From an uncultured archaeon (lineage in GTDB: Archaea > Nanobdellota > Nanobdellia > Pacearchaeales > GW2011-AR1): DNA of 50,617 nucleotides. Location: positions 1 through 50,617 of the forward strand of contig CAIKMX010000023.1 of assembly GCA_903828655.1 (NCBI GenBank), in the 5' to 3' direction. This document shows positions 22,796-42,812 of this stretch, piece after piece. Under the pieces are notes generated by a model. The model did no database searches. It was given only the letters and a program-made list of their open reading frames with translations, and was not told where the DNA came from. Position 1 is the stretch's first letter; each line of letters opens with the position of its first letter. A program made the translations under genes and the position numbers.

Positions 22796-23632
22796 CTAAT
22801 CACACTCTCTAAAACTTTCAAATATCTTGCAAGCATTGCAAACATTTCCTGTAGAGGGCTCACCACAAACATCACACTTCTTTATCTCAAATCCTTCTTC
22901 TGCTCTCTTGCTTCTTAGCTTAGGCGCAATCTTTTGAAAGTTATTAACAATCTTTAGCTTTTGTTTAGCAGATAAATCCAGGGCTTTCAACCACGCCCTT
23001 GTATCAGTTCTATAAGTTTCAAAGGCACAAGGACATTTATCATAATTTATTTTAAATTTCTTTTTCAAAGAATAACTTCTAATCTCTTCTTCAGGAATGA
23101 AGAACAACGGCTTAACTCTCTGAACAAAGCCAATTTGTTTAACTCCCGTAGACGGCGCAGAATTAGCTCCAAGTAAAATATTTCCCTTAAGAAAGTTCAT
23201 CAAAACATTTTGAACCTCATCATCAAGGTTATGGCCCGTAACTAACACGTCAGCCCCAAGCTTCTTAGCATATTTATTTAATATCCACCTCTTAATAATT
23301 CCACAAACAGTACATCCCGTAAGATTTTTCTTTTTCTTCAGAACAGCCTTGATAAAACAAATCCCTTGCCCAAGCTCTTTCTTCAGATCTACTATATGCA
23401 ACTTAACACGAAGATTAGAACAAAACTCTACCATATTCTTCAAGTGAAGTTTACTCCACTCCCCAAGATGCAAATCAATCATCAATCCCTCAACGTTATA
23501 TCCAAGCTTGTGCAATATATACAATACGGAAGTAGAATCCTTTCCACCAGATAAGGCTACAAAAACTCTATCTTCCTTGCTAAAAAGTTTATACTTCACA
23601 ATTGTCTCGGATACTTTCTTCTCAATGTCCAT
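22796..23632 (-). CDS. PP-loop ATP pyrophosphatase, TtuA/NcsA/TtcA-like tRNA thiolation enzyme
   Basis: SGGKDS PP-loop, CTVCGIIKR...VTGHNLDDEVQNVLMNFLKG, and C-terminal Cys pairs CPCA and CDVCGEPSTGNVCNAC. Confidence 0.8.
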   Translation of the reverse strand: MDIEKKVSETIVKYKLFSKEDRVFVALSGGKDSTSVLYILHKLGYNVEGLMIDLHLGEWSKLHLKNMVEFCSNLRVKLHIVDLKKELGQGICFIKAVLKKKKNLTGCTVCGIIKRWILNKYAKKLGADVLVTGHNLDDEVQNVLMNFLKGNILLGANSAPSTGVKQIGFVQRVKPLFFIPEEEIRSYSLKKKFKINYDKCPCAFETYRTDTRAWLKALDLSAKQKLKIVNNFQKIAPKLRSKRAEEGFEIKKCDVCGEPSTGNVCNACKIFESFRECD

Positions 23633-23710: not shown

Positions 23711-23840
23711 AACTTAGCCCACGATGTTAAAACATAGCACATTCACAAAACTCGCCCGTGCGAGCGCGGGAGTCTAACTTAACAGGAAGGTTGAACTTCA
23801 AGGGAACCTTGGTGCCCTTAAGGAACGGAGCGCGAGCAAC
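23711..23840 (+). repeat. Composite repeat: B, then C-prime split by a nested F copy (23786..23824)
   Basis: GCGAGCGCGGGAGTC (23762..23776), then F, then GGAGCGCGAGCA (29..40 of 238xx). Compare the uninterrupted C-prime at 1619..1656. Confidence 0.75.
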
Positions 23841-23848
23841 ACATACAA

Positions 23849-29589: not shown

Positions 29590-29697
29590 ATAGCCCCGCC
29601 AGGATTCGAACCTGGGTCACCGGCTTCAGAGGCCAGTATCCATAGTCTCCATTACACCTTTATTGGCTTCATGAATTTGACCGCTAGACTACAGGGC
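29590..29697 (-). tRNA. tRNA-Gln (anticodon CUG) with an about 35-nt intron at a non-canonical D-arm position
   Basis: Minus-strand read: AGCCCTG-TA-GTCT-AGCGGTCAA-[ATTCATGAAGCCAATAAAGGTGTAATGGAGACTAT]-GGAT-A-CTGGC-CTCTGAA-GCCGG-TGAC-CCAGG-TTCGAAT-CCTGG-CGGGGCT-A. The anticodon and T arms are canonical. The exact intron borders are uncertain. Confidence 0.7.
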
Positions 29698-29955
29698 TAG
29701 ACCTGCTTACGCAGATAAAACATCTCTAGTCTATGAAGATGCTTCAAACTAACGAACCTGACTAGTTTTAAAAATCTTGCTAATTCAAACTTTTTAGTAA
29801 TGTAACACCACCCTTAACATCTTGGCAACATTAACAAAGTAGTTTAGGCAAAATTGTGAGTGAATTTATGAGCGGAGATTTTGCTATTAAAATACTCATC
29901 TTTCAAAGTTTTTTATTTTAAAAAACTTTATAACTACAAAATTCATCAATTAATC

Positions 29956-30483
29956 ATGGTAACAGAAAAAATAGCTGCAAACCTTATTGGGGATAGGATA
30001 TTCTCAAACTCCAAAGAAGCTCAAAACCTTTTTGCAAGTCAAAGATTCGGAGAGCAAATTGGAGAGAAAATATTCTATTCAATGTCTGAAGCACTCTTCC
30101 TAGTTGAACAAGGAAAGATGCAAATAAACGATTTTAAGAACAAGAAAATATCTCAAAAGGATTTAATGACAAAACTTCAAAGGATAGATAAAAAATTTAA
30201 AACAAAATACATGGTTTTCAAAGATCTAAGAGAAAAGGGATACATTGTAAAAACCGCATTAAAGTTCGGAGCAGAGTTTCGTGTCTACGAGAAAGGAAAA
30301 TCAATAGGAAAAGATCACGCGAAGTGGATTTTATTTCCAGTCTCAGAAACCGAACAATTGACCTGGCATGATTTTTCCGCGAAAAATCGTGTAGCCCATA
30401 GCACAAAGAAAAACCTTCTAATCGCAATAGCCGATGACGAAGGCGACGTTTCTTACTATGAAGTCAAATGGATAAGGCCGTAA
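29956..30483 (+). CDS. endA: tRNA-splicing endonuclease
   Basis: C-terminal catalytic domain LKFGAEFRVYEKG....DHAKWILFPV....W.DF....RVAHSTKKNLLIAI.D..GDVSYYEVKWIRP. The start is placed at ATG 29956 because the track start at 29881 is TTG. Confidence 0.88.
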   Translation: MVTEKIAANLIGDRIFSNSKEAQNLFASQRFGEQIGEKIFYSMSEALFLVEQGKMQINDFKNKKISQKDLMTKLQRIDKKFKTKYMVFKDLREKGYIVKTALKFGAEFRVYEKGKSIGKDHAKWILFPVSETEQLTWHDFSAKNRVAHSTKKNLLIAIADDEGDVSYYEVKWIRP

Positions 30484-30547: not shown

Positions 30548-31561
30548 ATGATTGACGTACAAGAGGTAAAACAGAAAATACTAAAGCTTCTGGATGAAAA
30601 GGGGCCAAGTCTTCCAATGCATTTATCCAAAGATGTCCAGCTATCCACGATATTTACATCAGCAATTCTAGCAGAACTTATTCATGAAAAGAAGGTAAGT
30701 CTATCAAAACTAAGAATCGGCTCATCACACCTATACCTCCTTCCAGGTCAAGAAAAGAAACTAGAAGAATTCTCAGACAATCTTTCAGGAGTAGAAAAAG
30801 AAGCCTACATGATACTAAAAGAAAGAAGGGTTTTAGATGATGAAAAACAAACCCCTGCAATCCGTGTCGCCCTTAGAGCAATAAAAGATTTTGCCACACC
30901 ATTAAGATATCAAGAAAAGATAGTTTGGAAGTACACTTTCGCACCAACAGAAGAAATACAAGAAATCCTTAAGAACAGAAAACCTGCGCAACAAGAAATT
31001 CCCCGAGAAAAAATAACTCCCCCCACTAATGAACAATTACCTCAAGATCCTATTCCAGCAATAATTGAAAAACCCGCTATCGAAGAAAAAGCAGAAAAAG
31101 AGATTGAAAAAATAGTAGAAGTTATTGAGAAACCTTTGGAGAAAAAAATTGAGCAAATCTTCGAAAAGCCAATTGAAACAAAAATCCACATAGAAAAACT
31201 AACTCAAAGGAAAGGTGAACTTCAGGAAAACCTTGGTTTGCATAAGAAGGACAAAAAATCAATTAACTTCCTTGAAGAAATCCGCGCTTACTTATATGGG
31301 AAAAACATCGAAATGCTCAACACTTTAGACATAAAAAAGGACGAGATAACTGCAATAATAAGGCAAAAAGAACGAGAACACCTCCTTGTAGCATATAATA
31401 GAAAGAGGGTATCTGAAAAAGACATTCTAAAGGCATACAAAAAAGCCCAATCCCTTAACCTCCCATATTATATACTTTTCAAGGGTTCTACAACAAAAAA
31501 GATGCTTGACACGATTAATGCCTATAAACAACTACTTGAAATCGATAACCTGGAACCCTAG
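30548..31561 (+). CDS. Winged-helix-like protein with an IEKP-rich low-complexity linker (hypothetical)
   Basis: 337 aa. The N-terminal region (ILKLLDEKGPSLPMHLSKDV...SHLYLLPGQE) looks wH-like. The central linker is EKPAIEEKAEKEIEKIVEVIEKPLEKKIEQIFEKPIE. The function is not recognised. Confidence 0.6.
   Translation: MIDVQEVKQKILKLLDEKGPSLPMHLSKDVQLSTIFTSAILAELIHEKKVSLSKLRIGSSHLYLLPGQEKKLEEFSDNLSGVEKEAYMILKERRVLDDEKQTPAIRVALRAIKDFATPLRYQEKIVWKYTFAPTEEIQEILKNRKPAQQEIPREKITPPTNEQLPQDPIPAIIEKPAIEEKAEKEIEKIVEVIEKPLEKKIEQIFEKPIETKIHIEKLTQRKGELQENLGLHKKDKKSINFLEEIRAYLYGKNIEMLNTLDIKKDEITAIIRQKEREHLLVAYNRKRVSEKDILKAYKKAQSLNLPYYILFKGSTTKKMLDTINAYKQLLEIDNLEP
31208..31246 (+). repeat. Repeat module F copy lying in frame inside CDS 30548..31561
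   Basis: AGGAAAGGTGAACTTCAGGAAAACCTTGGTTTGCATAAG aligns with the intergenic F copies and is translated as RKGELQENLGLHK. Confidence 0.7.
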
Positions 31562-31576
31562 AACATACTGCTAATT

Positions 31577-31749
31577 TTAGGTAACAACACAATCCGTTAA
31601 CATACTTGGCAATATAATTTTAAAGACTTAGCAATTCAGCATATTAAGCATATCATATACAAATAAAACATTGCCAAGCCATCAAACCACAACACATTAC
31701 CTAATCGTCCGTAAAGCGAGGCATCTTGACAAAGTCAGATGCCGAGCAG
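31577..31749 (+). repeat. Composite repeat D - spacer - B - C
   Basis: TAGGTAACAACACAATCCGTTAACATACTTGGCAAT..TTTTAAAGACTTAGCAAT; AACATTGCCAAGCC..ACATTACC; AGCGAG-GCATCT-T-GAC-AAA-GTC-AGATGC-CGAGCAG. Confidence 0.8.
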
Positions 31750-31801
31750 CAAAACCAATAACAATAATCTTTAAAAACCATCATTCTTAACCTATCTTAA
31801 G

Positions 31802-32005
31802 ATGGGACGTATTAAAATAATGCTTGCAAAGAGAACCTCAAGAAGACTCATAGAGAAATCTTCAGATTCATTTGCAAAGACTTTTGACCAGAACAAGAAG
31901 GTACTTGGAAGTACGATGCCCAGCAAGAGAATGAGGAATATTATCGCAGGATATATAACTCGACTCAAAAGAAACGCAAAGACAATAATCAGTGACACTC
32001 AATAA
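31802..32005 (+). CDS. rps17e: 30S ribosomal protein S17e
   Basis: MGRIK....KR..R.LIEK......F..NK........PSKRMRN.IAGYITRL. 67 aa. Confidence 0.85.
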   Translation: MGRIKIMLAKRTSRRLIEKSSDSFAKTFDQNKKVLGSTMPSKRMRNIIAGYITRLKRNAKTIISDTQ

Positions 32006-32026
32006 CTAAATTAAAACAGAGGACAA

Positions 32027-32353
32027 ATGACAACAGAGACTAATATAAGTGAAAAATCTAAATCGTCAAACAAGATGGATGATGGAATTGTTTTCATAGG
32101 CGCAAAGCCTTTTATGAACTATGTTACGGGAGTAGTTGTTCAATTTAACAACAATATTGCCAAAGAAGTAACTATCAAAGCAAGAGGAAAATTCATCTCC
32201 AAGGCTGTAGACGTAGCAGAAGTAGTAAGAAGAAAGTTCCTAAAAGAACAAGGCGTTTCTATTGGTAAAATCAAGATAGAAAGTGAAGAGTTCGAAAATA
32301 AAGAAGGAAAGCAAGTTAACGTTTCCACAATTGAAATAACACTTAAGAAATGA
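32027..32353 (+). CDS. albA: Alba DNA/RNA-binding protein
   Basis: IVFIGAKPFMNYVTGVVVQFNN..AKEVTIKARGKFISKAVDVAEVVRRKF...VSTIEITL. The start may instead be the internal ATG at 32075. Confidence 0.85.
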   Translation: MTTETNISEKSKSSNKMDDGIVFIGAKPFMNYVTGVVVQFNNNIAKEVTIKARGKFISKAVDVAEVVRRKFLKEQGVSIGKIKIESEEFENKEGKQVNVSTIEITLKK

Positions 32354-32365
32354 TTGCTTCTAGAA

Positions 32366-32533
32366 AATCCGTTAATTGAATAAAATTGCCCACAACAGTG
32401 TAAAAAAGTTGTGCAGTTACCAAAAAAGCCGTAAAGCGAGAAACTGCGGCGAAGCCCAGTTTCGAGCATAGTTTAGTAACATCTCAATCCGTTGACAGTA
32501 TTGTCCATTTAATTTTAAGACTTAGCAACTTAA
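32366..32533 (+). repeat. Composite repeat B-like - C (32435..32468) - D (32471..32533), ending at the stop codon of 32534..32848
   Basis: GTTACCAAAAAA; AGCGAG-AAACTG-C-GGC-GAA-GCC-CAGTTT-CGAGCA; GTTTAGTAACATCTCAATCCGTTGACAGTATTGTCCATTTAATTTTAAGACTTAGCAACTTAATT. Confidence 0.85.
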
Positions 32534-32848
32534 TTACTTCTTCTTATCCTTACTTAATTTATCAGAAGATCTTTTTCCGAGAAGCCTATCCAGCTTATCA
32601 TCAATTTCATCTAATCTTTGCTCAATATTCTTCAAGCGATTTCTATCTTTAATAGACACTATACCTCTCCAGATTCTATAAATCACATAAATTAAAACAA
32701 TAACCCCTACAGTCTTAAACACGGTAGTAAACGGCTTAAGCTGATCAAGTAAATATGACCACGCCTGCCCCGTCAAATCCTTACTAACGCTCGCAGTTGC
32801 TTCAACAGTTTTGTTCGCAATTTCCTGCAAAGACTCATTTATCACCAT
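32534..32848 (-). CDS. Small membrane protein with a C-terminal charged helix (hypothetical)
   Basis: 104 aa with one clear TM segment (FTTVFKTVGVIVLIYVIYRIW). Confidence 0.5.
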   Translation of the reverse strand: MVINESLQEIANKTVEATASVSKDLTGQAWSYLLDQLKPFTTVFKTVGVIVLIYVIYRIWRGIVSIKDRNRLKNIEQRLDEIDDKLDRLLGKRSSDKLSKDKKK

Positions 32849-32911
32849 TAAAGCACAAGGAACTTGTGCTTTTTAATTGTTTTCACATGCATGCTATCAC
32901 CTAGACAAAGA

Positions 32912-33058
32912 GACTTAGCCAAAAACATTAAAACCCCTCACATTCGAAAAAAGTCTGGGAAGCGAAGCGCCGTGACGAAGTCCGGCGCGGAGCGGTAGTA
33001 AGTAATACCCCCCTGCTTTCACATCATTGGCAACTTAAATTAAAGGTATTGGCAACAC
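32912..33058 (+). repeat. Composite repeat B - C (32961..32995) - D
   Basis: GACTTAGCCAAAAACATTAAAACCCCTCACATTCGAAAAAA; AGCGAA-GCGCCG-T-GAC-GAA-GTC-CGGCGC-GGAGCGG; ..CATCATTGGCAACTTAAATTAAAGGTATTGGCAAC. Confidence 0.8.
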
Positions 33059-33109
33059 ATCACCAGCTTTTCAATAAACTTTTAAACCGACTAAAATAAG
33101 AAATATGAA

Positions 33110-33181
33110 GGCTGCATAGCTCAGTGGTAGAGCGCCTGTCTCATAAGCAGGAGGTCCCGAGCTCAATTCTCGGTGCAGCCA
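33110..33181 (+). tRNA. tRNA-Met (anticodon CAU; elongator or Ile2-type), with atypical T-loop CTCAATT
   Basis: GGCTGCA-TA-GCTC-AGTGGTA-GAGC-G-CCTGT-CTCATAA-GCAGG-AGGTC-CCGAG-CTCAATT-CTCGG-TGCAGCC-A. Confidence 0.85.
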
Positions 33182-33831
33182 TAATACCTCCCTAGTTTTT
33201 CTATTTGTTTAGGATTTATGAATCCAATTTCTTTAACAAATTTTTTGAGATTTTCTTTTCCATTCATTTGGAGTCTATACTGGTCTTGACGCATAAGAGG
33301 ATTCCCAAGTCCATCAAACTTGCGACGTTTAGATTTATAGAATTTACAATTGATTCCTCTAGAATTAAGAAAAATGCCTATTTCATTAATCAACCTTCTT
33401 GCGATACCATTAGCCTCAACCCGGGGATAAAGAGTTCCATTATTATCCGTTAAAACCAAAGAACCATCCGTAGCAAAAAACCCACTAATTACATACTTCA
33501 CAAGATTTTTTTCATAAAAAACTTTAGGGATAAATAACTTGTCTCCTTTCTTTCCAATAGGAAATCCAAAACTAGAAACAAAATCAAATAAAGAGTTTTT
33601 TATAAAGTGTAGATTAATAGCCCCCATCGAGGGTCTAAATCTGATTGGAATATCTTTGTCTATCAGTTTTTTTACACAAGGAATAAGCACCTCTTCAAAA
33701 AAAGGGATATCATCAGCCATACTACCTGCAACAAATACGGTCTTCCTCCTCTTACAGCCCAAACTCAAACAGCCATCTCCCAGCATTACCCCATAAAAAA
33801 ACGCAAAGTTTTTAGTTAATTTAAGAGACAT
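33163..33831 (-). CDS. Free-standing double-motif LAGLIDADG homing endonuclease
   Basis: Two LAGLIDADG motifs (FFYGVMLGDGCL and VISGFFATDGSL). 222 aa. The last 6 codons overlap the 3' end of tRNA-Met on the opposite strand. Confidence 0.8.
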   Translation of the reverse strand: MSLKLTKNFAFFYGVMLGDGCLSLGCKRRKTVFVAGSMADDIPFFEEVLIPCVKKLIDKDIPIRFRPSMGAINLHFIKNSLFDFVSSFGFPIGKKGDKLFIPKVFYEKNLVKYVISGFFATDGSLVLTDNNGTLYPRVEANGIARRLINEIGIFLNSRGINCKFYKSKRRKFDGLGNPLMRQDQYRLQMNGKENLKKFVKEIGFINPKQIEKLGRYYGCTEN

Positions 33832-33904
33832 ACTAAATAAAATACCCTTAAGTATAAATACTTTGCGCTCATAAACATCGAAGACAAAAAGTTAAAAATC
33901 ATAA

Positions 33905-34053
33905 GGCAGAGGTCGGGAGCGAGCTTTTAGGTCTGGACAAAAGTTCAGTGCAAGATTCTCACAGACCTAAATGCGAGTCGGCACCGAGCAATTCGCTTTG
34001 AGCGACTAGAGAATTAAGATAATCGCGAAATGCAAATTGCGAGACCCAGAGCC
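33905..34053 (+). other. G+C-enriched, helix-rich about 150-nt segment. Candidate structured RNA or an expanded module C derivative.
   Basis: Closing pairs GGC..GGTC (33905..33914) with GACC..GCC (34043..34053). There is a perfect 10-bp stem TTTAGGTCTG (33926..33935) / CAGACCTAAA (33962..33971). AGCGAG and CGAG motifs flank the stem. Confidence 0.3.
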
Positions 34054-34103
34054 ATTTAGCATACCGAAGATATAATTATAAACCTCAAAACTCAATAATC
34101 TGT

Positions 34104-34475
34104 ATGTTAAAAGACGAGGCGACAAGCTCAAATAGATTTGCCAAGATAATTCTTTTATTAACAATTATACTCTATATTGTAACTTTTGGATACAGCCTTT
34201 ATTATACCGAAGATTTTTCAGGGATAATAGTAGGATTTACCGCCCTTTCTATATTCAAACCTTTATTTGCAGTAATCGTTCTGGGAATAAATGTAACACT
34301 CCTTACCATGTCCATAGTCTATATAGTAAAACTCAAAAGACAAAATCAAAAAACCAAGATAACCAAAATATCTCTTATACTGAATATTATCCTTTTCTTG
34401 TTTGTGACTATTTCGCTAGCCCTAGGAATCTACATAATAAAACATTTCAAACAGATTTCTCCATTTTTCTCATAA
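34104..34475 (+). CDS. Small integral membrane protein (hypothetical)
   Basis: 123 aa with 3-4 hydrophobic segments. Confidence 0.5.
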   Translation: MLKDEATSSNRFAKIILLLTIILYIVTFGYSLYYTEDFSGIIVGFTALSIFKPLFAVIVLGINVTLLTMSIVYIVKLKRQNQKTKITKISLILNIILFLFVTISLALGIYIIKHFKQISPFFS

Positions 34476-34495
34476 CATCAATAATCCAAAAATAG

Positions 34496-34843
34496 CTAAA
34501 CTCTCGTATTAAACCCGTCTCCCTCTTTTCTTGGAAGAACATGCAAGTGAGCATGCATCACAACTTGCCCTGCAACAGGATTGTTATTCATCATTAAATT
34601 AAAGCCTTCCGAGGAAGTTTCTTCCATTAACTTCAAAGAAACATTTTTTGCCGTCTCAAGCAATTCCTTATTCAAATAAGCAGGAATGTCCAAAAGATTC
34701 TTGTAATGCTCTTTAGGAATAATAAGTGAATGCCCTTCGGTTTTAGGATTAACATCCCTTATAGCAATAAAATTTTCAGTTTCAAGAATCTTTTCAGCAG
34801 GTATCTCTCCCTTAACGATTTTGCAAAAAATACAGTTTTCCAT
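34496..34843 (-). CDS. HIT-family (histidine triad) nucleotide hydrolase
   Basis: CIFCKI at the N-terminus and the HAHLHVLPR triad. 115 aa. Confidence 0.88.
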   Translation of the reverse strand: MENCIFCKIVKGEIPAEKILETENFIAIRDVNPKTEGHSLIIPKEHYKNLLDIPAYLNKELLETAKNVSLKLMEETSSEGFNLMMNNNPVAGQVVMHAHLHVLPRKEGDGFNTRV

Positions 34844-34895
34844 TTTAATTTTTATTAAAATGTATGGATGTCTTTACGACATACTTCCATTTTAT

Positions 34896-35639
34896 TTATC
34901 TCAAAACTAAAACAGGTTTATAATCATTTCTCCAAGGTTTTTCTGGCGGAATTGGAGGAAGAGGAATCACCGGTTGAGCGGGCGGAATCTGCTTTGGAGG
35001 CAAGGGCAAAAGATCTCTAGGCCTAGTTTGTGGTATCAGAAAATCCAACTTCTTTTCAACATAAGGCTCTCCATTTTTATTGTTAACATAGTGCATCATC
35101 ATCCTATAATTCAGCCAAGTTTTAGGATCTATGGGCATTCTTCGAGAATCTACATAAGACACAACAGAATTTTTAGTATCAAAATTAACCCGCAAGGGAA
35201 AATTTAGAGGCACTCCCTTTATCTCATTTATCTCATTTCCAGAACGATCAAAAATTTTAGTTTTAAACGGATACAATTCCCCCTTATCTATAACAGAATA
35301 AGTTTCAAACCCCCATAGTTGAGATCTATCCATCCCCCGCACATCAACTCTTACTCGGGCCTGTTTAGCCAAAAAGTCAATTTTGGCATGGACTCCAAAA
35401 GAAGCCAAAACTCGCGTCTTTTCAAGATTTGTTAAATCATGATCCGCGTCATACCATCCATTAAGAGGAGTAGTATAGGGCCCTCTATAAGAAAACCTCT
35501 CAATCTCAGAATCAAATCTTCCCCCACATCCCCCAACTCCAGAACTCAAACCAACAGCACCAGCACAAAGCGCCGCAGACAATGCCAATCCTCTTGCAGT
35601 TTTTTTAACTAACTCAACCAATCCCATAAAAAAGCACAC
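34896..35639 (-). CDS. Putative lipoprotein/secreted protein with a Pro-rich C-terminus
   Basis: N-terminus MGLVELVKKTARGLALSAALCAGAVGLSSGVGGC (signal plus Cys) and C-terminal LPLPPKQIPPAQPVIPLPPIPPEKP. The start could be GTG 35639 or ATG 35627. Confidence 0.55.
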   Translation of the reverse strand: MCFFMGLVELVKKTARGLALSAALCAGAVGLSSGVGGCGGRFDSEIERFSYRGPYTTPLNGWYDADHDLTNLEKTRVLASFGVHAKIDFLAKQARVRVDVRGMDRSQLWGFETYSVIDKGELYPFKTKIFDRSGNEINEIKGVPLNFPLRVNFDTKNSVVSYVDSRRMPIDPKTWLNYRMMMHYVNNKNGEPYVEKKLDFLIPQTRPRDLLPLPPKQIPPAQPVIPLPPIPPEKPWRNDYKPVLVLR

Positions 35640-35666
35640 ATCAAGAATTATTTAAACATTATGATA

Positions 35667-35963
35667 CTAATCTTCCTTTATAAGATTCCCTTTTGAATCA
35701 TAATTTTCAACCCTCGTCTTAACCTCTCCAGTAATCCCATTATACTCCCCTATCTCTTTTCTAATAACCCGATTACTTTTCTCATTTTCATAAGTTTCCA
35801 AAATAGCACCACCCATCCAAACAGTCGCTCTAGTGTCACCTTGCCTCACAGAAATACATCCAGATTGAGTTGCAGCAACGGGGAGATAAAAAGCGCCAGC
35901 CAAAGCTAAACCTCTTCCAAAATTTTTAAGTTTATCAACCAAACTCATAAAACAAAGAAACAT
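35667..35963 (-). CDS. Putative small lipoprotein, N-terminally paralogous to 34896..35639
   Basis: MSLVDKLKNFGRGLALAGAFYLPVAATQSGC shares the LV[ED]..K...RGLAL signature with the neighbouring gene. Confidence 0.5.
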   Translation of the reverse strand: MFLCFMSLVDKLKNFGRGLALAGAFYLPVAATQSGCISVRQGDTRATVWMGGAILETYENEKSNRVIRKEIGEYNGITGEVKTRVENYDSKGNLIKED

Positions 35964-36042
35964 TAAGCATATTTAAAGATTATTGTACCCAAGAATACAA
36001 ATCAAAACCCTCATTAAAAATTAAAAAAATACTCCTACCAGT

Positions 36043-36216
36043 GCGATTCCTCCACAAGAGATACCAAACCATTATCGCTCGCCCTTCGGGCTCGCTTCTC
36101 AGTATCGTCTCACTCCCTTAACATCTTTGTCCATTCAGAATTTAAAGCATTGGCAACACTAACTTAGTTTCTTTCTTGAAACACCAATTCTTTCTTTTCT
36201 AAAGAAAGAAGAGTGA
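36043..36216 (+). repeat. Composite repeat E - C(minimal, reverse orientation, 36075..36096) - D - A, ending at the stop codon of 36217..37083
   Basis: GCGATTCCTCCACAAGAGATACCAAACCA; TCGCTCGCCCTTCGGGCTCGCT; ..CCTTAACATCTTTGTCCATTCAGAATTTAAAGCATTGGCAAC; CTTAGTTTCTTTCTTGAAACACCAATTCTTTCTTTTCTAAAGAAAGAAGAGTGA. Confidence 0.85.
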
Positions 36217-37083
36217 TCACATCTGCTCTTCATACATATTCTGTCTCATTATTTCTCTATTAACCTCTTCTTTCTTGAACAAATCTCTGAATGGCAGCAA
36301 TCTATCAAAAAATCCTCTTGGCTTTTCTGGCGTTCCGCATAAAGCAGAAGCAAAATTTCTTATTTCATGAGAAATAACATTACCTTCATCATGAATCGTC
36401 ATAGGCTCTTTATGATAAGTTGCCGCAGCAATTTTATCATGATCTTTTATTCTTGCAACAACAGGAATTCCAGAAGCTTTTTCTATTTCATCCAAATCCA
36501 TCTCGTGTTTAGGACTTCTTATTCTATTTACAATAATTCCCGCAACAGGCGTTTGCTGTTGCCTCGCAATCTTTGCAGCCTTCAAGGAAGTAATAAGTGT
36601 CGGTTCATCAGGAGTCGTAACAACAAATACCTTATCAGCAGCCGCAATTATTGGTTTCATCTCCTCATAATTTGGTGAAGAATCAAGTATTATAAAATCA
36701 TACCTATACCTCATTTTATTCAAAATCTTCTCGAGTCTATAAACGTCAATATCGTTCTTATACTCTTGAGCAGCAGGAACTACATCAAATCCATGAGACT
36801 CATAAATAGCATTGTGCAATCCAACACCAAAAAGTGCGTCATGTAATGTAACATCGTACCTATCTTTATCCGTTAAATCAAGATAAAGCCCAATAGTCGG
36901 AGCAGAAAAGTTTCCATCAACCAATAAAACTCGCTTCCCAAAATGATTAGCAAGTGAAGACGCAGTTTCAATTGCAAGTGTCGTTTTACCGACGCCCCCC
37001 TTTATAGAAACAAACGCAAGGATAGGAGCTTTTTTTACACTTTTTACACTCTCTTTTTCATCAAATTCCTGAATATAATTCAT
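36217..37083 (-). CDS. ParA/MinD-family P-loop ATPase
   Basis: Deviant Walker A SIKGGVGKTT and the DG..S..T region. 288 aa. Confidence 0.85.
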   Translation of the reverse strand: MNYIQEFDEKESVKSVKKAPILAFVSIKGGVGKTTLAIETASSLANHFGKRVLLVDGNFSAPTIGLYLDLTDKDRYDVTLHDALFGVGLHNAIYESHGFDVVPAAQEYKNDIDVYRLEKILNKMRYRYDFIILDSSPNYEEMKPIIAAADKVFVVTTPDEPTLITSLKAAKIARQQQTPVAGIIVNRIRSPKHEMDLDEIEKASGIPVVARIKDHDKIAAATYHKEPMTIHDEGNVISHEIRNFASALCGTPEKPRGFFDRLLPFRDLFKKEEVNREIMRQNMYEEQM

Positions 37084-37153
37084 TCTTTCTCATCACCTCA
37101 AGATAACTAACAAATCTGAATATATAAAGATTACTTTAAGAAAAAAACTATTC

Positions 37154-38947
37154 TTACTCACAAACTTCTTCGCCTTTCACTCTCGTCTCAACAACTTTTC
37201 CAGCCTTCTCAAACTTCAACTCTCCAGATATCATCTTCCTAAAAACATCTCTCAACTCAGAGATTTTAACACGAATCTGTTTCGTGCTATCCCGATCTCT
37301 AATTGTTACATCCTTTCCAGCAAATGAATCAGAATCAATTGTAACACAATATGGTGTCCCCAACTCATCATTTCTTGCATATCTTCTTCCAACGCTTCCA
37401 CTCTCGTCGTACAAAACACTCCAATCTTCCCGAAGCATTTCATAAACTTCTCTAGACATTTTAACAAGAACTTTATCATTCTTAACTAATGGAAAAACTG
37501 CCGCTTTTATTGGTGCAAGTCTTGGATTCAATTTTAAAATAATATTCTGCCTCTTCTCATCAAAATGATAAGCATCAAACATAAAAACCAAAAATGCTCT
37601 TTCAACTCCAAGTGAAGGCTCAGCAACCACCATCGGCAAAATCTTTCTTGGCTTCTGCCCAGGTTCTCCAGATTCTTCAACAACCTTCAAATCCTTCCCC
37701 GAAAATTTCTCATGTTGAGATAAATCATACGTGCCACGATCTGCAACTCCTTGTAACTCCTGCCATCCAAATGGAAACTTATACTGAACATCCCAAGTAT
37801 CTGTCGCATAATGGCTTCTCTCTTCAGGAAGATGTTGTCTTACCCTTAGTTTTTCAGGATTAGCACCTAGACTCAAAAAGAACTTTGTTTCATTAGCCAA
37901 CCAATATCCATGCCATCCAAGTTTTATTATTCCTTTTTTTAATGCATCACGAACTTTCATTCTCTCCATTTCCTTTTCATGTTTCTGCATATCTGCAGAG
38001 TAAACATTCAATTCAAAGTCCTCAACCTCATCAAGATAAGGACACTCATCTTTTTTATCCGGATCAATAAAATATTCAATCTCCATCTGTTCAAACTCTC
38101 TACTTCTAAATAAAAAGTTTCTTGGAGCAATTTCATTTCTAAATGATTTTCCCATTTGGGCAATTCCAAAAGGCAATTTTAATCTTGCATTCTCAACAAC
38201 CTGCTTAAAATCAGCGAATATTAACTGTGCAGTTTCAGGCCTAAGATAAGCTTCCGTAGAATCACTCTTCACAGGCCCAACTTGAGTTGTAAACATCGGA
38301 TTAAACTCTCCTTTATCTTCCCACTCTCCACCGCACTTTTCACATCTCGCATCACCTTTTTTTAATTCAAACTTATCCACTTTAGATTTATTCTTGCATT
38401 TTTTACAAACAACAGCAACATCAACAAAAGAATCCACATGTCCCGAAGCTTTCCAAACTTTTGGATTAGTTATAATAGAACCATCAATACCAACAATATC
38501 TTCTCTAGATTGTATGTGATATTTCCACCAAGCATCTTTCAAGTTCTTCTTCATCTCGCTACCATAAGGCCCAAAATCCCAAAAGCCAGCCAATCCTCCA
38601 TACAATTCACCCGAAGCATAAACAAATCCCTTTCTCTTACAAAAGTTCGCCATCTCATCTATAGAAATTTCACTTAAATTTTTCTTTTCATTTCCTTTTT
38701 CCTTTTTATCACTCATATTTATCTCTGATTTTACCGGTTTATTAACTTTATCACTATTTTTAACACCTGTAGTTTTATTCAAAATCTCTTTCATTTTTCT
38801 CTCCGCCTCAGATTTAGTTTTGCCAAGATAAGCAATAGTCTTCGCAACAACTCTTCCCTTTTTATCTCCTTTAGATTTCTCTCTCTTCGATTCCCTAAGA
38901 TAATAATATTCTTTCCCAGAAATTTTCTTCTTAACAATAAATGCCAT
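37154..38947 (-). CDS. glyS: Glycyl-tRNA synthetase (archaeal/eukaryotic alpha2 type) with an about 95-aa N-terminal extension
   Basis: ELYGGLAGFWDFGPYG, FRNEIAPR and class II motifs. An inserted Cys4 ribbon is present (CKKCKN...CEKCGG). The N-terminal residues 1-95 are Lys-rich and contain GKEYYYLRES...IAYLGK. Confidence 0.88.
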   Translation of the reverse strand: MAFIVKKKISGKEYYYLRESKREKSKGDKKGRVVAKTIAYLGKTKSEAERKMKEILNKTTGVKNSDKVNKPVKSEINMSDKKEKGNEKKNLSEISIDEMANFCKRKGFVYASGELYGGLAGFWDFGPYGSEMKKNLKDAWWKYHIQSREDIVGIDGSIITNPKVWKASGHVDSFVDVAVVCKKCKNKSKVDKFELKKGDARCEKCGGEWEDKGEFNPMFTTQVGPVKSDSTEAYLRPETAQLIFADFKQVVENARLKLPFGIAQMGKSFRNEIAPRNFLFRSREFEQMEIEYFIDPDKKDECPYLDEVEDFELNVYSADMQKHEKEMERMKVRDALKKGIIKLGWHGYWLANETKFFLSLGANPEKLRVRQHLPEERSHYATDTWDVQYKFPFGWQELQGVADRGTYDLSQHEKFSGKDLKVVEESGEPGQKPRKILPMVVAEPSLGVERAFLVFMFDAYHFDEKRQNIILKLNPRLAPIKAAVFPLVKNDKVLVKMSREVYEMLREDWSVLYDESGSVGRRYARNDELGTPYCVTIDSDSFAGKDVTIRDRDSTKQIRVKISELRDVFRKMISGELKFEKAGKVVETRVKGEEVCE

Positions 38948-39036
38948 TCCTCATTAATACTTCCTTATATCTTACCCACTACAAAATACTATTTAAATCT
39001 TTCTTTAGGCACTACGGAAGAACTTCAAGAAATAAA

Positions 39037-39107
39037 AGCAGACACCAGGAATTGCACCTGGGATCAGAGGGTTGCAGCCTCTTGCCTTACTACTTGGCTA
39101 TGCCTGC
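39037..39107 (-). tRNA. tRNA-Cys (anticodon GCA), discriminator U, with atypical T-loop TGCAATT
   Basis: Minus-strand read: GCAGGCA-TA-GCC..GGC-A-AGAGG-CTGCAAC-CCTCT-GATC-CCAGG-TGCAATT-CCTGG-TGTCTGC-T. Confidence 0.75.
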
Positions 39108-39170
39108 GACGTGTCAATGCAATTGACTTGCATACGACCTAAGTTTTGGTGGTTGTTAGACTTTTTAAGA

Positions 39171-39467
39171 TTATTTGTTCTGTACTTTCAACCATATCAC
39201 CTTATATTTGTTACCGCTATACTTCTTTCCAAGTTTTATGCTTTCCTTCATTTGCTTCGTTAATAATCTATAAAATGGATGTTCCGAAAGGTTTTCATAA
39301 GTTTTTATCTTCACAACCTTAAGATTTAGTCTCTTAAACTTATACGCTCGACCTAATTTAAACCTAACAAATTCTTTTGCCGTCCTGGTTGTTGTAATCA
39401 TCCCGTCCTTTTCCAATATCCTTAGAACTTTTTTCTCTTCATTTTTTGGAAATTTTATAGAATCCAT
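39171..39467 (-). CDS. Hypothetical 98-aa basic protein sandwiched between tRNA-Arg and tRNA-Cys
   Basis: ORF only. No motif recognised. Confidence 0.4.
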   Translation of the reverse strand: MDSIKFPKNEEKKVLRILEKDGMITTTRTAKEFVRFKLGRAYKFKRLNLKVVKIKTYENLSEHPFYRLLTKQMKESIKLGKKYSGNKYKVIWLKVQNK

Positions 39468-39479
39468 TTTAGCAACACA

Positions 39480-39598
39480 CGCCCATGACAGGATTTGAAC
39501 CTGCGACCCCTGACTTTCTTTGTTCTACGAACGAAGAACGAGCGAACTCGCTTCGCACTTAGAAGGCCAGTGCTCTATCCAGGCTGAGCTACACGGGC
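39480..39598 (-). tRNA. tRNA-Arg (anticodon UCU) with a 44-nt intron at the canonical 37/38 position
   Basis: Minus-strand read: GCCCGTG-TA-GCTC-AGCCTGGATA-GAGC-A-CTGGC-CTTCTAA-[GTGCGAAGCGAGTTCGCTCGTTCTTCGTTCGTAGAACAAAGAAA]-GTCAG-GGGTC-GCAGG-TTCAAAT-CCTGT-CATGGGC-G. Confidence 0.85.
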
Positions 39599-39677
39599 AT
39601 GAATATAATTGGTTTTGATGGGTTTTAAAGTTTTGTTATTTCGATAGAAATAAAAAGCAGAACAATAAGAAACAAAC

Positions 39678-39989
39678 ATGAATGAACAACAATTCGATGA
39701 AGCATATGCACAAAGAAGATTAAGAGACGTTTCAAGAGCTCTTAGAATGTTTCGAGATCTTGGATTAGAATATCAAAATCCAGAAAGAGTTGATTGTCTA
39801 AGCATAGATATCGGAGAATCTGTTCTCATACATAAAATGGCAAAAACAACAGGCATAGCAGAGGATTTAGACAATCATGCAAAAAGTGTTCAGACATTTG
39901 AAGAATTAAGACAAAGAGAGCCAGAAGCATACCAAAGTGTAAGAACAGATATAATGAAATTTCATAATGATTATCATTTCAGAGGATAG
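39678..39989 (+). CDS. Hypothetical protein
   Basis: 103-aa ORF with no motif recognised. Confidence 0.4.
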   Translation: MNEQQFDEAYAQRRLRDVSRALRMFRDLGLEYQNPERVDCLSIDIGESVLIHKMAKTTGIAEDLDNHAKSVQTFEELRQREPEAYQSVRTDIMKFHNDYHFRG

Positions 39990-40037
39990 TCATCACTCAA
40001 AACAAATAAAAACCCCCTTCTCTTTCTATTAACAATC

Positions 40038-40955
40038 ATGGAAAAAATTAAGCTGACTTTTTTAGGAACTGGAAGCGCGATTCCAACATCAAGAAGGAAT
40101 CACACAGCCATGCTTCTATCATACAAGGATGAAAACATTTTATTTGATTGCGGTGAAGGAACTCAAAGACAGTTCAGACATGCAAGACTAAATCCCTGCA
40201 AAGTTACAAAAATCTTTATCACACACTGGCACGCAGATCACGTCCTAGGAATTCCTGGTCTATTGCAAACACTAATGCTAAATGGCTACAATAAAACCCT
40301 TAAAATTTATGGTCCAGAAGGAACAAAAAGAATGATGCAGTTATACATAGGATTATTTGCACATAAAGGAACTAATTTTCCAATTGAAGTTCACGAAGTC
40401 TTATCAGGCAAACAACCCGTAATTGAAGAAAAAGAATTCAAAATAGAAGCACAACAAATGTCTCATGACACCCCAACACTGGCATATTCTTTCATTATAA
40501 AAGAAAAAAACAGAATAGACAAAGACAAACTCAAAAAGTTAAAGATAGAAAACTCCCCTCTAATTGGAGAACTTGCGAAGGGAAAAACAGTTACAATTGC
40601 AGGAAAAAAGATAGACGGTAAAAAACTGATCTATAGAGAAGAACAAAGAAAGTTAACTTTCGTTTTAGACACAAGAGAAAATGCAAATGCAATAAGCTTA
40701 GCAAAAGATTCAGACTTGTTAGTCTGCGAATCAAGTTATTCTGCAGAGGAAACCGAACTTGCAAAAGAACATGCACATCTTACATCTGCACAAGCAGCAG
40801 ATATTGCAAAGAAATCAAAATCAAAAAAGTTAATTTTGACTCATCTAAGTCAAAGATACGAAACAAAAGCCCAATCAAAGCAAATTCTGGAAGAAGCAAA
40901 AAAAGTCTTCAAGAACACCGAACTAGCCGAAGATCTAATGAGTCTAGAGATTTAA
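40038..40955 (+). CDS. rnz: Ribonuclease Z (tRNA 3' endonuclease, metallo-beta-lactamase fold)
   Basis: LGTGSAIPT and ITHWHADHVLGIPGLL (HxHxDH), with C-terminal LTHLSQRY. 305 aa. Confidence 0.88.
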   Translation: MEKIKLTFLGTGSAIPTSRRNHTAMLLSYKDENILFDCGEGTQRQFRHARLNPCKVTKIFITHWHADHVLGIPGLLQTLMLNGYNKTLKIYGPEGTKRMMQLYIGLFAHKGTNFPIEVHEVLSGKQPVIEEKEFKIEAQQMSHDTPTLAYSFIIKEKNRIDKDKLKKLKIENSPLIGELAKGKTVTIAGKKIDGKKLIYREEQRKLTFVLDTRENANAISLAKDSDLLVCESSYSAEETELAKEHAHLTSAQAADIAKKSKSKKLILTHLSQRYETKAQSKQILEEAKKVFKNTELAEDLMSLEI

Positions 40956-41377
40956 GCTTGTGAAGGATTTCTATCAAAAGCTAATTCAATTAACTTTTTT
41001 GCGGGAAATAAAACATTAATCCCTGCTACCTTCTTAGGCCTCAAATACTTTCTTTGTGTCAAAGACCCATAATCCCACGTCTTTCCAAAAAGACAACGAG
41101 TGCTAAAATAGCTAGATTTTCCAATGTTAAGCAAATCTTCCTGATCAAAACCCACAACATTTCTAACAAGATGGCACACTCTAATTATAGAATCTGCAGC
41201 AGTTTCTAACTCGGTCTCACCCAAACCCCCAATTCTCCTTGGAGGAGCACCTAGACTGTAGGCCGCACTCAATGCCTGAGAAGCATCATCAACATAAAGA
41301 TGCGAAAAGAAAGGAACAATTATCACATGATTTCCATCTTCATCCTGCCACTCCCCTTTAGCTCTTACATCTTCCAT
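40952..41377 (-). CDS. Hypothetical protein
   Basis: 141-aa ORF. Its stop overlaps the rnz stop region (convergent). No motif recognised. Confidence 0.4.
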   Translation of the reverse strand: MEDVRAKGEWQDEDGNHVIIVPFFSHLYVDDASQALSAAYSLGAPPRRIGGLGETELETAADSIIRVCHLVRNVVGFDQEDLLNIGKSSYFSTRCLFGKTWDYGSLTQRKYLRPKKVAGINVLFPAKKLIELAFDRNPSQA

Positions 41378-41622: not shown

Positions 41623-41625
41623 CAA

Positions 41626-42800: not shown

Positions 42801-42812
42801 TAATCAAAATTA

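Follow-up and report, generated by a model that had tools for sequence, protein, structure and literature searches.

Module C, an element of about 35 nt that recurs across a contig of a Pacearchaeota (DPANN) archaeon, folds into a hairpin whose stem is free in sequence and whose loop, bulge and flanks are fixed. The compensated stems support selection on module C as a folded single strand, RNA or ssDNA, as had been proposed from a reading of the letters, rather than on primary sequence. We favor, at a probability a little short of even (about 0.45), the reading that module C is the structured core of a new REP/BIME-like family of dispersed mosaic repeats, in which a protein would recognize the hairpin in its folded, single-stranded form and the hairpin would be co-transcribed into 3' UTRs.

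Module C occurs ten times in the window

The window, that is the whole stretch of 50.6 kb (50,617 nt) under analysis, holds ten copies of module C, a density of about 10 copies per 50 kb, and all ten lie within non-coding gaps, nine on the plus strand and a minimal one on the minus strand. Each copy listed in the original prediction is present where it was placed. A covariance model (R1) built from nine window copies and two L040 copies, searched against the window with filters off, matched exactly these ten: the nine plus-strand copies scored 50-61 bits and the minus-strand copy (36071-36100) 21.9 bits, while the next-best match in the window reached 9.7 bits (E=1.2). The flank pattern AGCGR-N20-26-GAGCR occurs nine times, against 0.64 +/- 0.90 in shuffles, and eight of these nine occurrences are module C copies.

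The copy at 865-899 (plus strand, 54.6 bits) has the basal stem GGTGTCT/AGACATC with one G.T pair, a bulged T and a GAC-GAA-GTC apex, and a RelE/ParE-like minus-strand ORF has its stop codon (903-905) 3 nt from the end of the core. The stem GCATCG/CGATGC is found in three plus-strand copies. The one at 2255-2288 (51.6 bits, loop GAAT) lies between the convergent genes 1713-2114 (plus) and 2359-2820 (minus), with a module F hairpin abutting its 5' side. The second, at 22758-22792 (51.2 bits), has the variant flanks AGCGGA/ATAGCGA; the PP-loop ATPase gene 22796-23632 (minus) has its stop codon 3 nt away, and on the minus strand CTTTTTTATTTTGG comes after the hairpin. The third, at 42166-42198 (51.1 bits, GGC-AAA-GCC), is located between Lsm (42346-42588, minus) and the orphan gene 41626-42060, at a point where the contig of another assembly terminates. 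At 31715-31749 (plus, 55.3 bits), a stem GGCATCT/AGATGCC carries the loop AAA and the 3' flank CGAGCAG; this copy is flanked by plus-strand genes (a 337-aa ORF and the rps17e-like 31802-32005) and is without a T-run module.

The index copy, 32435-32468 (plus, 50.2 bits), combines the stem GAAACTG/CAGTTTC with a bulged C and GGC-GAA-GCC, and stands 82 nt downstream of alba (32027-32353, plus) and 65 nt downstream of the minus-strand gene 32534-32848. Between the start of that latter gene and tRNA-Met (33110, plus) is the copy at 32961-32995 (plus, 54.5 bits), in which the stem GCGCCG/CGGCGC has an A.G closing pair, as does the stem GCATTG/CAATGC of the copy at 41588-41622 (plus, 61.4 bits). The latter is 3 nt from the stop codon of the orphan gene 41626-42060 (minus), and the same sequence is present in two other assemblies. 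The copy at 49034-49068 (plus, 50.0 bits, loop GAAT), previously described as imperfect, indeed contains mismatches, namely two G.T and one C.T; it lies between divergent genes, adjoins an RHH/PIN toxin-antitoxin locus and is flanked by inverted arm modules (TTGCCAAG...ATTACCAAA and TTTGGTAT...CTTGGCAA). The minimal copy, 36075-36096, reads AGCGAG-CCC-GAA-GGG-CGAGCGA on the minus strand (21.9 bits), and it lacks the basal stem and the bulge, which are thus general to full copies and not to all copies as had been supposed. Its neighboring D5/D15 modules are in the usual orientation, with the hairpin and its flanks inverted.

Fold anatomy

Read from the outside in, the predicted fold opens with two G-C pairs, which are followed by an internal loop of tandem G.A/A.G (5'-GCGAG over 5'-CGAGC). 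A stem of 6-7 bp, free in sequence, comes next, then a single bulged base, in most copies T. The apical stem, G(A/G)C, has 3 bp and carries a GAA or AAA triloop. The identical fold is predicted for all 17 copies available to us (see below). The flanks had been regarded as conserved sequence alone; instead, the 5' and 3' flanks base-pair with each other (G-C, C-G and tandem G.A/A.G) and lengthen the hairpin in 17/17 copies. The bulge and the tandem G.A mismatches are kept in all 16 full copies, from three lineages, and the G-C pairs outside them are invariant. Flanks and loop are far better conserved than the stem sequence, although AGCGAG and CGAGCGA, said to be common to all copies, are both exact in about half of them, the rest varying (AGCGAA/GGAGCGA, AGCGGA/ATAGCGA, CGAGCAG, CGAGCAT). 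Likewise, the bulged base is a pyrimidine, as predicted, in most copies, and an A in two copies from other genomes. The core measures 33, 34 or 35 nt, which rules out coding through the hairpin.

The two strands are not equivalent. On the AGCGAG strand the stem wobbles are five G.T and no A.C, in a small sample, and this strand folds more stably in 17/17 copies, by a mean of 2.85 kcal/mol; a constant advantage of 2 kcal/mol stems from one conserved motif and so is not independent evidence per copy. The modeled asymmetry fits recognition of a single strand.

Several resemblances were followed up and set aside. The tandem G.A is a symmetric 2x2 loop between G-C pairs, with no 3-nt bulge in any copy, unlike the L7Ae-binding kink-turn. 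Nor is the fold an archaeal bulge-helix-bulge, having one 1-nt bulge and one 2x2 loop and no alternative register that gives 3-4-3. The GAC-CGAR-GTC mini-hairpins reported in module F exist, at the corrected positions 721-730 (GACCGAAGTC) and 2214-2223 (GACCGAGGTC). The GCGAAGCGAG..CGCTCG stretch of the tRNA-Arg intron exists as well, without the CGAGCGA flank and without the fold; since it shares hexamers only, we treat it as unrelated.

The stems covary

For the covariation analysis the ten window copies were joined by seven more, drawn from another Nanoarchaeota MAG and from one JGI sample (n=17, three lineages). In a gapless alignment of the ten copies with a 7-bp stem, 95.8% of cells are paired, and in 7/12 pairs both partners have changed (24 cells). 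Covariation scores 0.554, compared with 0.243 +/- 0.040 in shuffles, none of 500 shuffles scoring as high; when the partners were slid by 1-3 columns as a control, the score was at most 0.104. The alignment of all 17 copies gives the same picture. With the seven further copies included, covariation was strong. The apical stem, also predicted to covary, switches between A-T and G-C inside two different basal-stem subfamilies.

Module C is embedded in a mosaic of flanking modules

The copies share 50-100 nt of flanking "arm" modules, which makes them homologous dispersed repeats. Arm, D4/D5, D15 and F modules surround module C in varying combinations and recur both with and without it (units at 1464, 8858 and 42735), and a different hairpin takes its place between GCGAG-type flanks at 23753-23848 and 33918-33990. 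A recognizable arm module stands beside 13/17 copies, and most copies are one-armed. An example of an arm, 5' of module C on the AGCGAG strand, is 41540-41587 (plus; GTTACCACAATGTCAAGAACCCAAAACATTACCAAAAAAAGTTCCGTAA), and its complement yields the conserved run CTTTTT(T)GGTAATGT. On the complementary strand this run begins 6-9 nt past the hairpin in 13/17 copies, often with a second T-run (CTTGGCWAWGTTTTTT) next. On the 3' side, the D5/D4 module at 32469-32533 (plus) reads GTCTTAAAATTAAA-TGGACAATACTGTCAACGGATTGAGATGTTACTAAACTA on the minus strand, a TATA-like box plus an inverted arm copy (families D4, D5 and D9). An unrelated hairpin module (TTCTTTCTTTAGAAAAGAAAGAA) abuts stop codons at 18999 and 36217, suggesting that post-stop hairpins are a habit of this genome. 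A small-protein reading, raised by "FGISCGG" on the minus strand of three modules (a 31-aa leaderless ORF in unit 8858), was rejected because the frame is lost in the other two units.

Module C copies often follow genes and accompany inserted genes

Six copies start 3-8 nt past the stop codon of a gene on the strand complementary to AGCGAG, compared with 0.52 expected within 8 nt (P about 5e-6), and these must therefore be transcribed into the mRNA of that gene. Read on the same strand, a co-directional gene ends just upstream in 11/17 copies. Orientation is uniform within a contig (9/10 in the window, 2/2 in L223) and is not fixed relative to transcription, the AGCGAG strand being antisense to most genes in the window and sense in L223. 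GC skew was discarded as an argument about replication strands because it tracks the coding strand via purine loading and allows no leading or lagging assignment.

Module C copies accompany lineage-specific insertions of orphan and toxin-antitoxin genes. The distance from Lsm to tRNase Z is 200 nt in L124 and 1.4 kb in the window, where the gap contains a module C copy, an orphan gene, a second copy and a 141-aa gene. EF-1alpha and the TPR gene are separated by a gap that varies; in the window it contains a copy, an orphan gene, an RHH/RelE pair and another copy. Toxin-antitoxin loci adjoin the copies at 865, 49034 and L188, and the orphan protein encoded at 41626-42060 has no homologue among 5.8 billion proteins.

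Module C is patchily distributed

Beyond the window, module C is present in the Nanoarchaeota MAG P6-18 and in the JGI sample Ga0194044. It is missing from about 110 kb of relatives (seven loci, EF-2 78-80% identical) and from the orthologous PspC-trx gap of a relative whose DNA ligase is 82% identical. A scan of a genome collection was dominated by chance matches from high-G+C genomes, and among the matches listed L040 alone was useful. No orthologous pair of copies was found, the orphan protein 41626-42060 having no homologue and the relatives chosen by EF-2 being free of copies. The 161-nt unit had no match in phage and plasmid collections, and exact-protein look-ups for strain variants returned identical short contigs or no match. 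Against Rfam 15, module C was unmatched even at E<=1; the only matches at gathering score were tRNAs, as was also the case for the related loci. In the literature searched, no paper reported such repeats from DPANN archaea. Across the sequences compared, module C thus appears lineage-specific and patchy.

Relation to known repeat families

Module C looks like an archaeal equivalent of the REP/BIME or BOX elements known from bacteria. Like the REP/BIME sequences of Enterobacteria and Pseudomonas (with their RAYTs and REPINs), it is an imperfect palindrome of short length (20-40 nt) in which a mismatch or bulge is fixed and to which a conserved non-palindromic flank lends polarity; its numerous copies are extragenic, mainly right after genes where they would be co-transcribed into 3' UTRs, and form a mosaic with other short motifs, and the stems of its subfamilies differ yet stay paired. 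Unlike them, its host is an archaeon (DPANN), its flank AGCGAG/CGAGCGA forms a tandem G.A and is not GTAG, its copy number is known from the window alone, at 10 per 50 kb, and its mobility is putative. Indeed, the REP hallmark GTAG (GT(A/G)G) is at neither foot, the flanks being AAAGCGAG and CGAGCGA(C)A, and the roughly 70 kb covered by the window and L223 contain no RAYT (Y1 HUH) gene, of which one per genome would be expected.

With the subterminal hairpins of IS200/IS605 elements and PATEs, module C has in common a hairpin with an extrahelical base (T in IS608). In that family folded single-stranded DNA is recognized on one strand, via conserved bases at the hairpin foot; a bias in orientation along the replichore is expected, and the module C hairpins that abut stop codons are the very end of the repeated unit. 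In contrast to these elements, no TnpA/TnpB, no distinct left and right ends and no conserved cleavage tetranucleotide were identified around module C. The modular arm-hairpin-arm build with optional modules recalls BOX (Streptococcus pneumoniae), Correia (Neisseria) and MITE-like repeats, as do the inverted arms (TTGCCAAG...ATTACCAAA vs TTTGGTAAT...CTTGGCAA), the intergenic location, the promoter- and terminator-like sequences inside the repeat and the assembly breaks. By MITE criteria, inverted arms ending in TTGCCAAG and CTTGGCAA flank copy 49034, and partly others, with no duplication recognized. Module C differs from these families in being mostly one-armed and strongly biased in orientation rather than random, with no target-site duplication seen and with conserved non-palindromic flanks round the central hairpin.

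In the mechanism that we propose, the family would have spread via a copying process at the DNA level. The nucleotides and the bulge are fixed and the stem is free, from which we infer that a protein reads the folded single strand, perhaps as RAYT or IS200/IS605 Y1 transposases do with REP and IS-end hairpins. Spread or persistence may be limited to fold-competent copies, and many settled copies would be transcribed within the 3' UTR of the neighboring gene, where an RNA 3' end could be defined or protected with help from the hairpin and from the U-run that begins 6-9 nt past it. Some evidence weighs on the other side. The ORFs of the 50.6-kb window and of 20 kb of L223 include no transposase or recombinase of any kind, and a search for a target-site duplication or a pair of filled and empty sites found none. 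Moreover, nearly all stems are intact, while dead selfish copies should decay; this points to selection per locus, that is to a host function, and counts against the REP-like reading, for which the evidence base is 17 copies from three lineages.

Alternative explanations

Of the alternatives to a REP-like family, the one to take most seriously, possible if doubtful, is a dedicated host RNA element: a 3'-UTR or transcript-end structure that acts as a terminator helper, as a shield against 3'-exonuclease or as the site of an RNA-binding protein. The acting strand would then be the complement of AGCGAG (UCGCUCG-hairpin-CUCGCU, then a U-run), and the element would have spread by reuse of the whole "terminator cassette". 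The T-runs past the hairpin, the six copies just behind stop codons, the gene ends upstream of 11/17 copies, the second hairpin module at 18999 and 36217 and the intact stems all agree with this, but every strand-specific feature favors the opposite strand (tandem G.A rather than C.U, GAA triloop, five G.T vs no A.C). Nor does position always suit a transcript end, since L040a lies in sense orientation between two co-directional genes, copy 31715 between plus-strand genes, and copies 32961, 49034 and L188 between divergent gene starts, where no upstream transcript arrives. Archaeal RNA polymerase terminates at oligo-T and requires no hairpin, and the relatives with 78-80% identical EF-2 manage without module C. 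Like Rho-independent terminators, module C presents on the complementary strand a G+C-rich hairpin just past a stop codon with a T-run downstream; its conserved flanks, loop and bulge are not terminator features. The bacterial-type intrinsic terminator was rejected because it needs a T-tract 0-2 nt past the stem, and the T-run here is 6-9 nt past CTCGCT in most copies; a consensus scan of 31000-50617 gave seven sites, none of them a module C copy. We consider it unlikely that some copies are instead genes for a small non-coding RNA of about 90 nt on that same strand, laid out as a TATA-like box (GTCTTAAAAYTRAA), then, about 25-30 nt further downstream, a conserved 5' segment (AUGUCAACGGAUUGAGAGGAUACCAAACUG), and after it the hairpin and an oligo-U stop. 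A D4/D5 module with the box at constant spacing does precede the hairpin in 32435, 49034 and L143, and more weakly in 2255, 42166 and 32961, and this box resembles the tRNA and gene promoters of the genome (AAAACTTTAAAAC), yet it is without the purine-rich BRE of the tRNA promoters. Such units also occur between divergent genes (49034, 32961), where no other transcript would supply them, and similarly built units that have no hairpin finish in T-runs (8858, 42735, 36097). Against this, at least seven copies come directly after a stop codon with no D4/D5 module, the L040 copies have none of these modules, Rfam is silent, and the putative U-run terminator also makes up the 3' arm of the inverted repeat ATTACCAAAAA / TTTGGTAAT, whose pairing would be impossible in an RNA ending there.

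Recombination offers another explanation. It is rather improbable that an as yet undescribed archaeal system of recombination or transposition uses the hairpins as folded ssDNA substrates and moves "gene plus hairpin" units (orphan genes, toxin-antitoxin pairs) into gaps of the streamlined DPANN genome; to the same slight degree, such a system could be functionally like integron cassettes or REP/RAYT, with a new type of site (tandem G.A foot, bulged T, GAA triloop) and a putative enzyme. The specific version in which module C brackets gene cassettes, each a gene plus its downstream hairpin, as an attC analogue with another core, strikes us as very unlikely. It would account for the orphan gene 41626-42060, which has a direct copy on either side, one of them 3 nt from its stop codon, and for the RHH/RelE pair and orphan gene between copies 865 and 2255, both segments being insertions relative to related genomes. 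Integrons with attC arrays have also been reported in Nanoarchaeota (PMC9668308), and module C resembles attC in its conserved fold with free stem sequence, extrahelical bases and strand selectivity, in its place directly after cassette ORFs in one shared orientation, and in the toxin-antitoxin cassettes common nearby. It differs in length (35 nt vs 55-141 nt for attC) and in the core boxes RYYYAAC/GTTRRRY, missing on both strands. Canonical attC was accordingly discarded: R''/R' boxes are absent from the core +/-15 nt on both strands, and the nearest strings, GTTCCGT and ACGGAAC, violate the consensus. No IntI, nor any other tyrosine recombinase, was seen in 70 kb. Apart from the two segments bracketed by direct copies, the copies are scattered over 50 kb with no array, dispersed among housekeeping genes (alba, rps17e, PP-loop ATPase, thioredoxin and rps19e adjoin copies), and the bracketed genes possess their own promoters. 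The most skeptical reading, disfavored and to our minds scarcely credible, takes the hairpins for palindromic debris that is neutral, has no function and no recognizing protein, and owes its "perfect" pairing only to intrastrand template switching (quasipalindrome correction). Even where selection is absent, template switching can change the two arms of a palindrome in step, and the nested mini-hairpins in other modules (721-730, 2214-2223) would fit, but such correction would erase the bulge and the tandem G.A, which every full copy keeps, and flanks and loop are much better conserved than stems.

Implications

The genomes of DPANN archaea, about 1 Mb in size, are regarded as reduced to essentials. 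In the genome sampled here, about 250 nt of each gap nevertheless go to conserved repeat modules arranged as a mosaic, and at least one module is a hairpin under clear structural constraint. Since contigs from other assemblies end at copies, the repeat explains the fragmentation of short-read assemblies in these organisms. If module C is REP-like and read by an enzyme specific for single strands, REP biology would extend to DPANN archaea, and the element would help to study the entry of orphan and toxin-antitoxin genes into such genomes. Should it instead signal RNA 3' ends, module C would be an archaeal transcript-end element that depends on a hairpin, in a domain where oligo-T alone is regarded as sufficient for termination. 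On either reading, module C would be a compact and testable, if putative, motif of protein-nucleic acid recognition.

Structure and covariation of module C

The original prediction placed ten copies of module C, a ~35-nt hairpin repeat, in the window (copies are named here by start coordinate). A covariance model (R1, filters off) recovered exactly these ten at the predicted positions, nine on the + strand (50-61 bits) and one minimal copy on the - strand (21.9 bits), with a next-best score of at most 9.7 bits. The bare flank pattern occurs nine times in the window, against 0.64 expected from shuffles. The hairpins cannot be put down to an assembly artefact: four further ENA assemblies contain identical sequences. 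Same-strain short contigs from these assemblies (L001, L002, L221, and L222, compared with window 41380-42165 and 31755-32471) start or stop within a few bases of copies 31715, 32435, and 42166; short-read assemblies are broken by the repeats or their hairpins.

When species-representative genomes were scanned for the pattern, chance matches in high-G+C genomes dominated; the matches listed include at least one true relative, the Nanoarchaeota MAG P6-18, with two copies. A metagenome scan added five copies on short contigs (~34% G+C) of JGI sample Ga0194044, which share the window's flanking modules. The resulting 17 copies carry 11 distinct basal stems (GCATCG, GCATTG, GCATCT, GTGTCT, GCGCCG, GCGCTT, AAACTG, GCACCT, GAACTT, GAATCG, and GCCC). 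In a gapless alignment of the ten copies with 7-bp stems, 95.8% of cells are paired and both sides have changed in seven of 12 pairs (24 cells). The covariation score was 0.554 versus 0.243 ± 0.040 for shuffled alignments, with none of 500 shuffles reaching the observed value, and sliding the partners by 1-3 columns gave at most 0.104. The 17-copy model alignment agrees, though it misregisters the 6-bp copies, and RNAalifold recovered the inner helix and outer G-C pairs unaided. Thus, the predicted compensatory stem replacement holds with seven copies added. The apical A-T/G-C switch, also foreseen, is found in both the AAACTG and GCATCG subfamilies and so occurred more than once. We conclude that the finding is real and that the inference of structural selection stands.

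The flanks themselves belong to the fold, with 5'-GCGAG opposite 5'-CGAGC as G-C, C-G, tandem G.A/A.G, and G-C. The element thus comprises two G-C pairs, a 2x2 purine loop, a 6-7 bp stem of free sequence, a 1-base bulge, a 3-bp G(A/G)C stem, and a GAA, AAA, or GAAT loop, a shape that minimum-free-energy folding predicts for all 17 copies. Three copies have A.G or A.A in place of the closing G-C, which lengthens the purine stack. AGCGAG and CGAGCGA had been described as common to all copies; these flanks are conserved, but both motifs are letter-perfect in only about half. When both strands were folded, as originally proposed, the AGCGAG strand was the more stable in 17 of 17 copies (mean 2.85 kcal/mol). 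It is also favoured by its purine loop and GAA triloop, and its stems hold five G.T wobbles (865; 49034 twice; L143 from Ga0194044; L040b from P6-18) and no A.C. This suggests, but does not decide, that the AGCGAG strand would be the folding one, given the limited number of copies and a single shared motif that accounts for ~2 kcal/mol of the difference.

Flanking modules and distribution

As repeats, the copies are homologous; their hairpins did not arise by convergence. On the AGCGAG strand, a ~50-nt 'arm', (TT)GCCAAG..AAGAACC..ACATTACCAAAAAGT, lies 5' of the hairpin, and an inverted arm copy with a TATA-like box (the D4/D5 modules) often follows 3'. The same modules form units lacking module C (1464, 8858, and 42735), carry it flipped (36075), or have another hairpin in its place between GCGAG-type flanks (23753-23848 and 33918-33990). 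D4/D5 modules (1464-1529, 8858-8900, 31573-31638, 32468-32533, 33011-33054, 36097-36160, 42735-42800, and 49068-49133) read, on the - strand, a TATA-like box (GTCTTAAAAYTRAA), then TTGCCAAG/TGGACAAG, then ATGTCAACGGATTGAGAGGATACCAAACTG, in the same orientation in all nine. Three run on into a conserved GGTATCTCTTGTGGAGGAATCG segment (8825-8870, 36024-36069, and 42694-42739), which base-pairs with the unit itself. These modules may be promoters of small transcripts.

Module C orientation is uniform per contig (9 of 10 copies in the window, 2 of 2 in 20 kb of P6-18) and, relative to the main coding strand, opposite in the window genome and P6-18. Distribution is patchy: no copy occurs in ~110 kb around EF-2 at seven loci (EF-2 78-80% identical), nor, in a relative whose ligase is 82% identical, at the orthologous gap between PspC and thioredoxin. 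Lsm and tRNase Z, adjacent in a relative (L124), are separated in the window by 1.4 kb holding a copy, an orphan gene, a second copy, and a 141-aa gene, and the variable EF-1alpha/TPR gene gap contains a copy, an orphan gene, an RHH/RelE pair, and another copy. A search of 5.8 billion sequences gave no homologue of a 144-aa protein bracketed by copies. Three copies have a toxin-antitoxin locus as neighbour: an RHH protein with a RelE/ParE-like ORF bearing an in-frame stop near its start (903-1413, -), an RHH-like pair with a PIN-like protein (49184-50076, +), and a RelE-like pair on a Ga0194044 contig (L188 988-1576).

Other repeats and genes

Module F is a second hairpin family, with a conserved CCTTGG loop, a preceding AGGAAAGTTGAAC, and stems that differ yet pair (AAGAGAA/TTCTCTT, AAGGGAA/TGCCCTT, and AAAA/TTTT). 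Its copies (6-57, 693-765, 2186-2253, 2853-2904, 23774-23825, and 31198-31249) are all in + orientation, and one falls within a predicted 337-aa ORF (30548-31561). The mini-hairpin predicted inside extended copies is present, GAC-CGAR-GTC lying in a 25-nt insert of two, with coordinates corrected to 721-730 and 2214-2223. A further repeat, TCACTCTTCTTTCTTTAGAAAAGAAAGAATTGGTG, forms a 9-bp A/T-rich hairpin (18962-18996, 36182-36216, and 48912-48934; L143 980-1038, a JGI relative's contig, at 93% identity) beginning 0-2 nt past the stops of a ribonucleotide reductase gene (18999) and a ParA/MinD-like gene (36217).

GCGAG-rich variants of the module C flanks lie at 1620-1657, 23753-23848, and 33918-33990: one is hairpin-less (GCGAGCGCGAGAGCGACAGAGGAGCGGAGCGCGAGCA); in another, 10 nt past a stop codon, CGAGCGCGGGAG and GGAGCGCGAGCA flank a module F hairpin; and in the third, AGCGAG and CGAGCA enclose a 10-bp stem (TTTAGGTCTG/CAGACCTAAA) capped by a 26-nt loop. 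Contigs of 41-44% G+C from other samples (L133 5743-5781, L200, L193, and L167 4476-4514) carry GGAGGAGCGAG-CCTCCGAC-GAA-GTCGGGCG-CGAGCGACGGGGGA adjoining a tRNA gene and the duplicated 3' end of a tRNA; one compensated change, C-G to T-A, separates L133 from L167. The motif may be distantly related to module C, or else an element of separate origin occupying a tRNA integration site.

The host is a DPANN archaeon of the Pacearchaeota/Nanoarchaeota group. The window spans one entire 50.6-kb contig of it (~36% G+C), with genes for archaeal RNA polymerase subunits, aEF-1alpha, aEF-2, class II ribonucleotide reductase, RFC, Alba, Lsm, and a tRNA-splicing endonuclease; the top outside EF-2 match is 80% identical, and named matches are Candidatus Pacearchaeota and Nanoarchaeota MAGs. 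The - strand carries about three quarters of the genes, and GC skew tracks the coding strand. RNA polymerase has its largest subunit in a single 1156-aa ORF (8952-12422, -) with Rpb1 domains 1-5, rather than in separate A' and A'' parts as in most archaea; a relative (L123, 1139 aa) shares this undivided form. A tRNA-Arg(TCT) gene (39480-39598, -), found by Rfam and missed by ARAGORN, has a ~46-nt intron after the anticodon loop, with a matching intron-containing tRNA in a Ga0194044 relative (L145 133-261). About 200 nt away from the gene for the tRNA-splicing endonuclease (29881-30483, +), a sub-threshold tRNA match (29597-29700, -; 26.7 bits, model positions 6-65) may represent a tRNA that is split, permuted, or interrupted by an intron. 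A free-standing 222-aa LAGLIDADG-domain ORF (33163-33831, -), resembling intein endonuclease domains, overlaps at its 3' end the opposite-strand tRNA-Met (33110-33181, +) by 19 nt. A 1140-aa protein without a Pfam match (42813-46235, -) has internal DNA repeats of ~500-555 nt (43147-44419 and beyond); it is probably of the long coiled-coil repeat type.

Known families and possible roles

Neither Rfam 15, even at E<=1, nor phage and plasmid collections matched module C. A kink-turn was rejected for want of a 3-nt bulge, a bulge-helix-bulge on anatomy, and a bacterial-type terminator because the T-run is too distant from the stem and a scan flags no copy. The nearest analogy is REP/BIME: both are short, imperfect palindromes with polarity and a fixed irregularity, both occur in numerous extragenic copies directly behind genes and in mosaics with other motifs, and both have subfamilies whose stems differ yet pair. 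This is a likeness only; we do not claim membership, since the hallmark GTAG is absent and the ~70 kb covered shows no transposase, RAYT or other.

Might module C be a dedicated host 3'-end RNA element? Six copies start 3-8 nt past the stop codon of a complementary-strand gene (0.52 expected, P ~5e-6), and on that strand CTTTTT(T)GGTAATGT follows the hairpin by 6-9 nt in 13 of 17 copies. However, copies 32961, 49034, and L188 lie between divergent gene starts, and 31715, L040a (P6-18), and 36075 lie downstream of a gene in sense orientation, which contradicts a simple 3'-end role. As a whole, this reading is rather unlikely. That some copies are small-RNA genes is less probable still. Integrons have been reported in Nanoarchaeota archaea (PMC9668308); module C is without the RYYYAAC/GTTRRRY boxes of attC, which was rejected on these grounds, and a cassette recombination site is a distinctly improbable identity for it. 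Functionless palindromes are the least credible reading of all, since every full copy retains the bulge and G.A loop, against mere palindrome correction.

We tentatively favour, at a probability of about 0.45, a new REP/BIME-like mosaic repeat family of a DPANN archaeon, whose hairpin would be read in folded, single-stranded form and which would leave many of its copies in 3' UTRs. Such a family may be mobile, its hairpin may be bound by a protein, and it may act as RNA.
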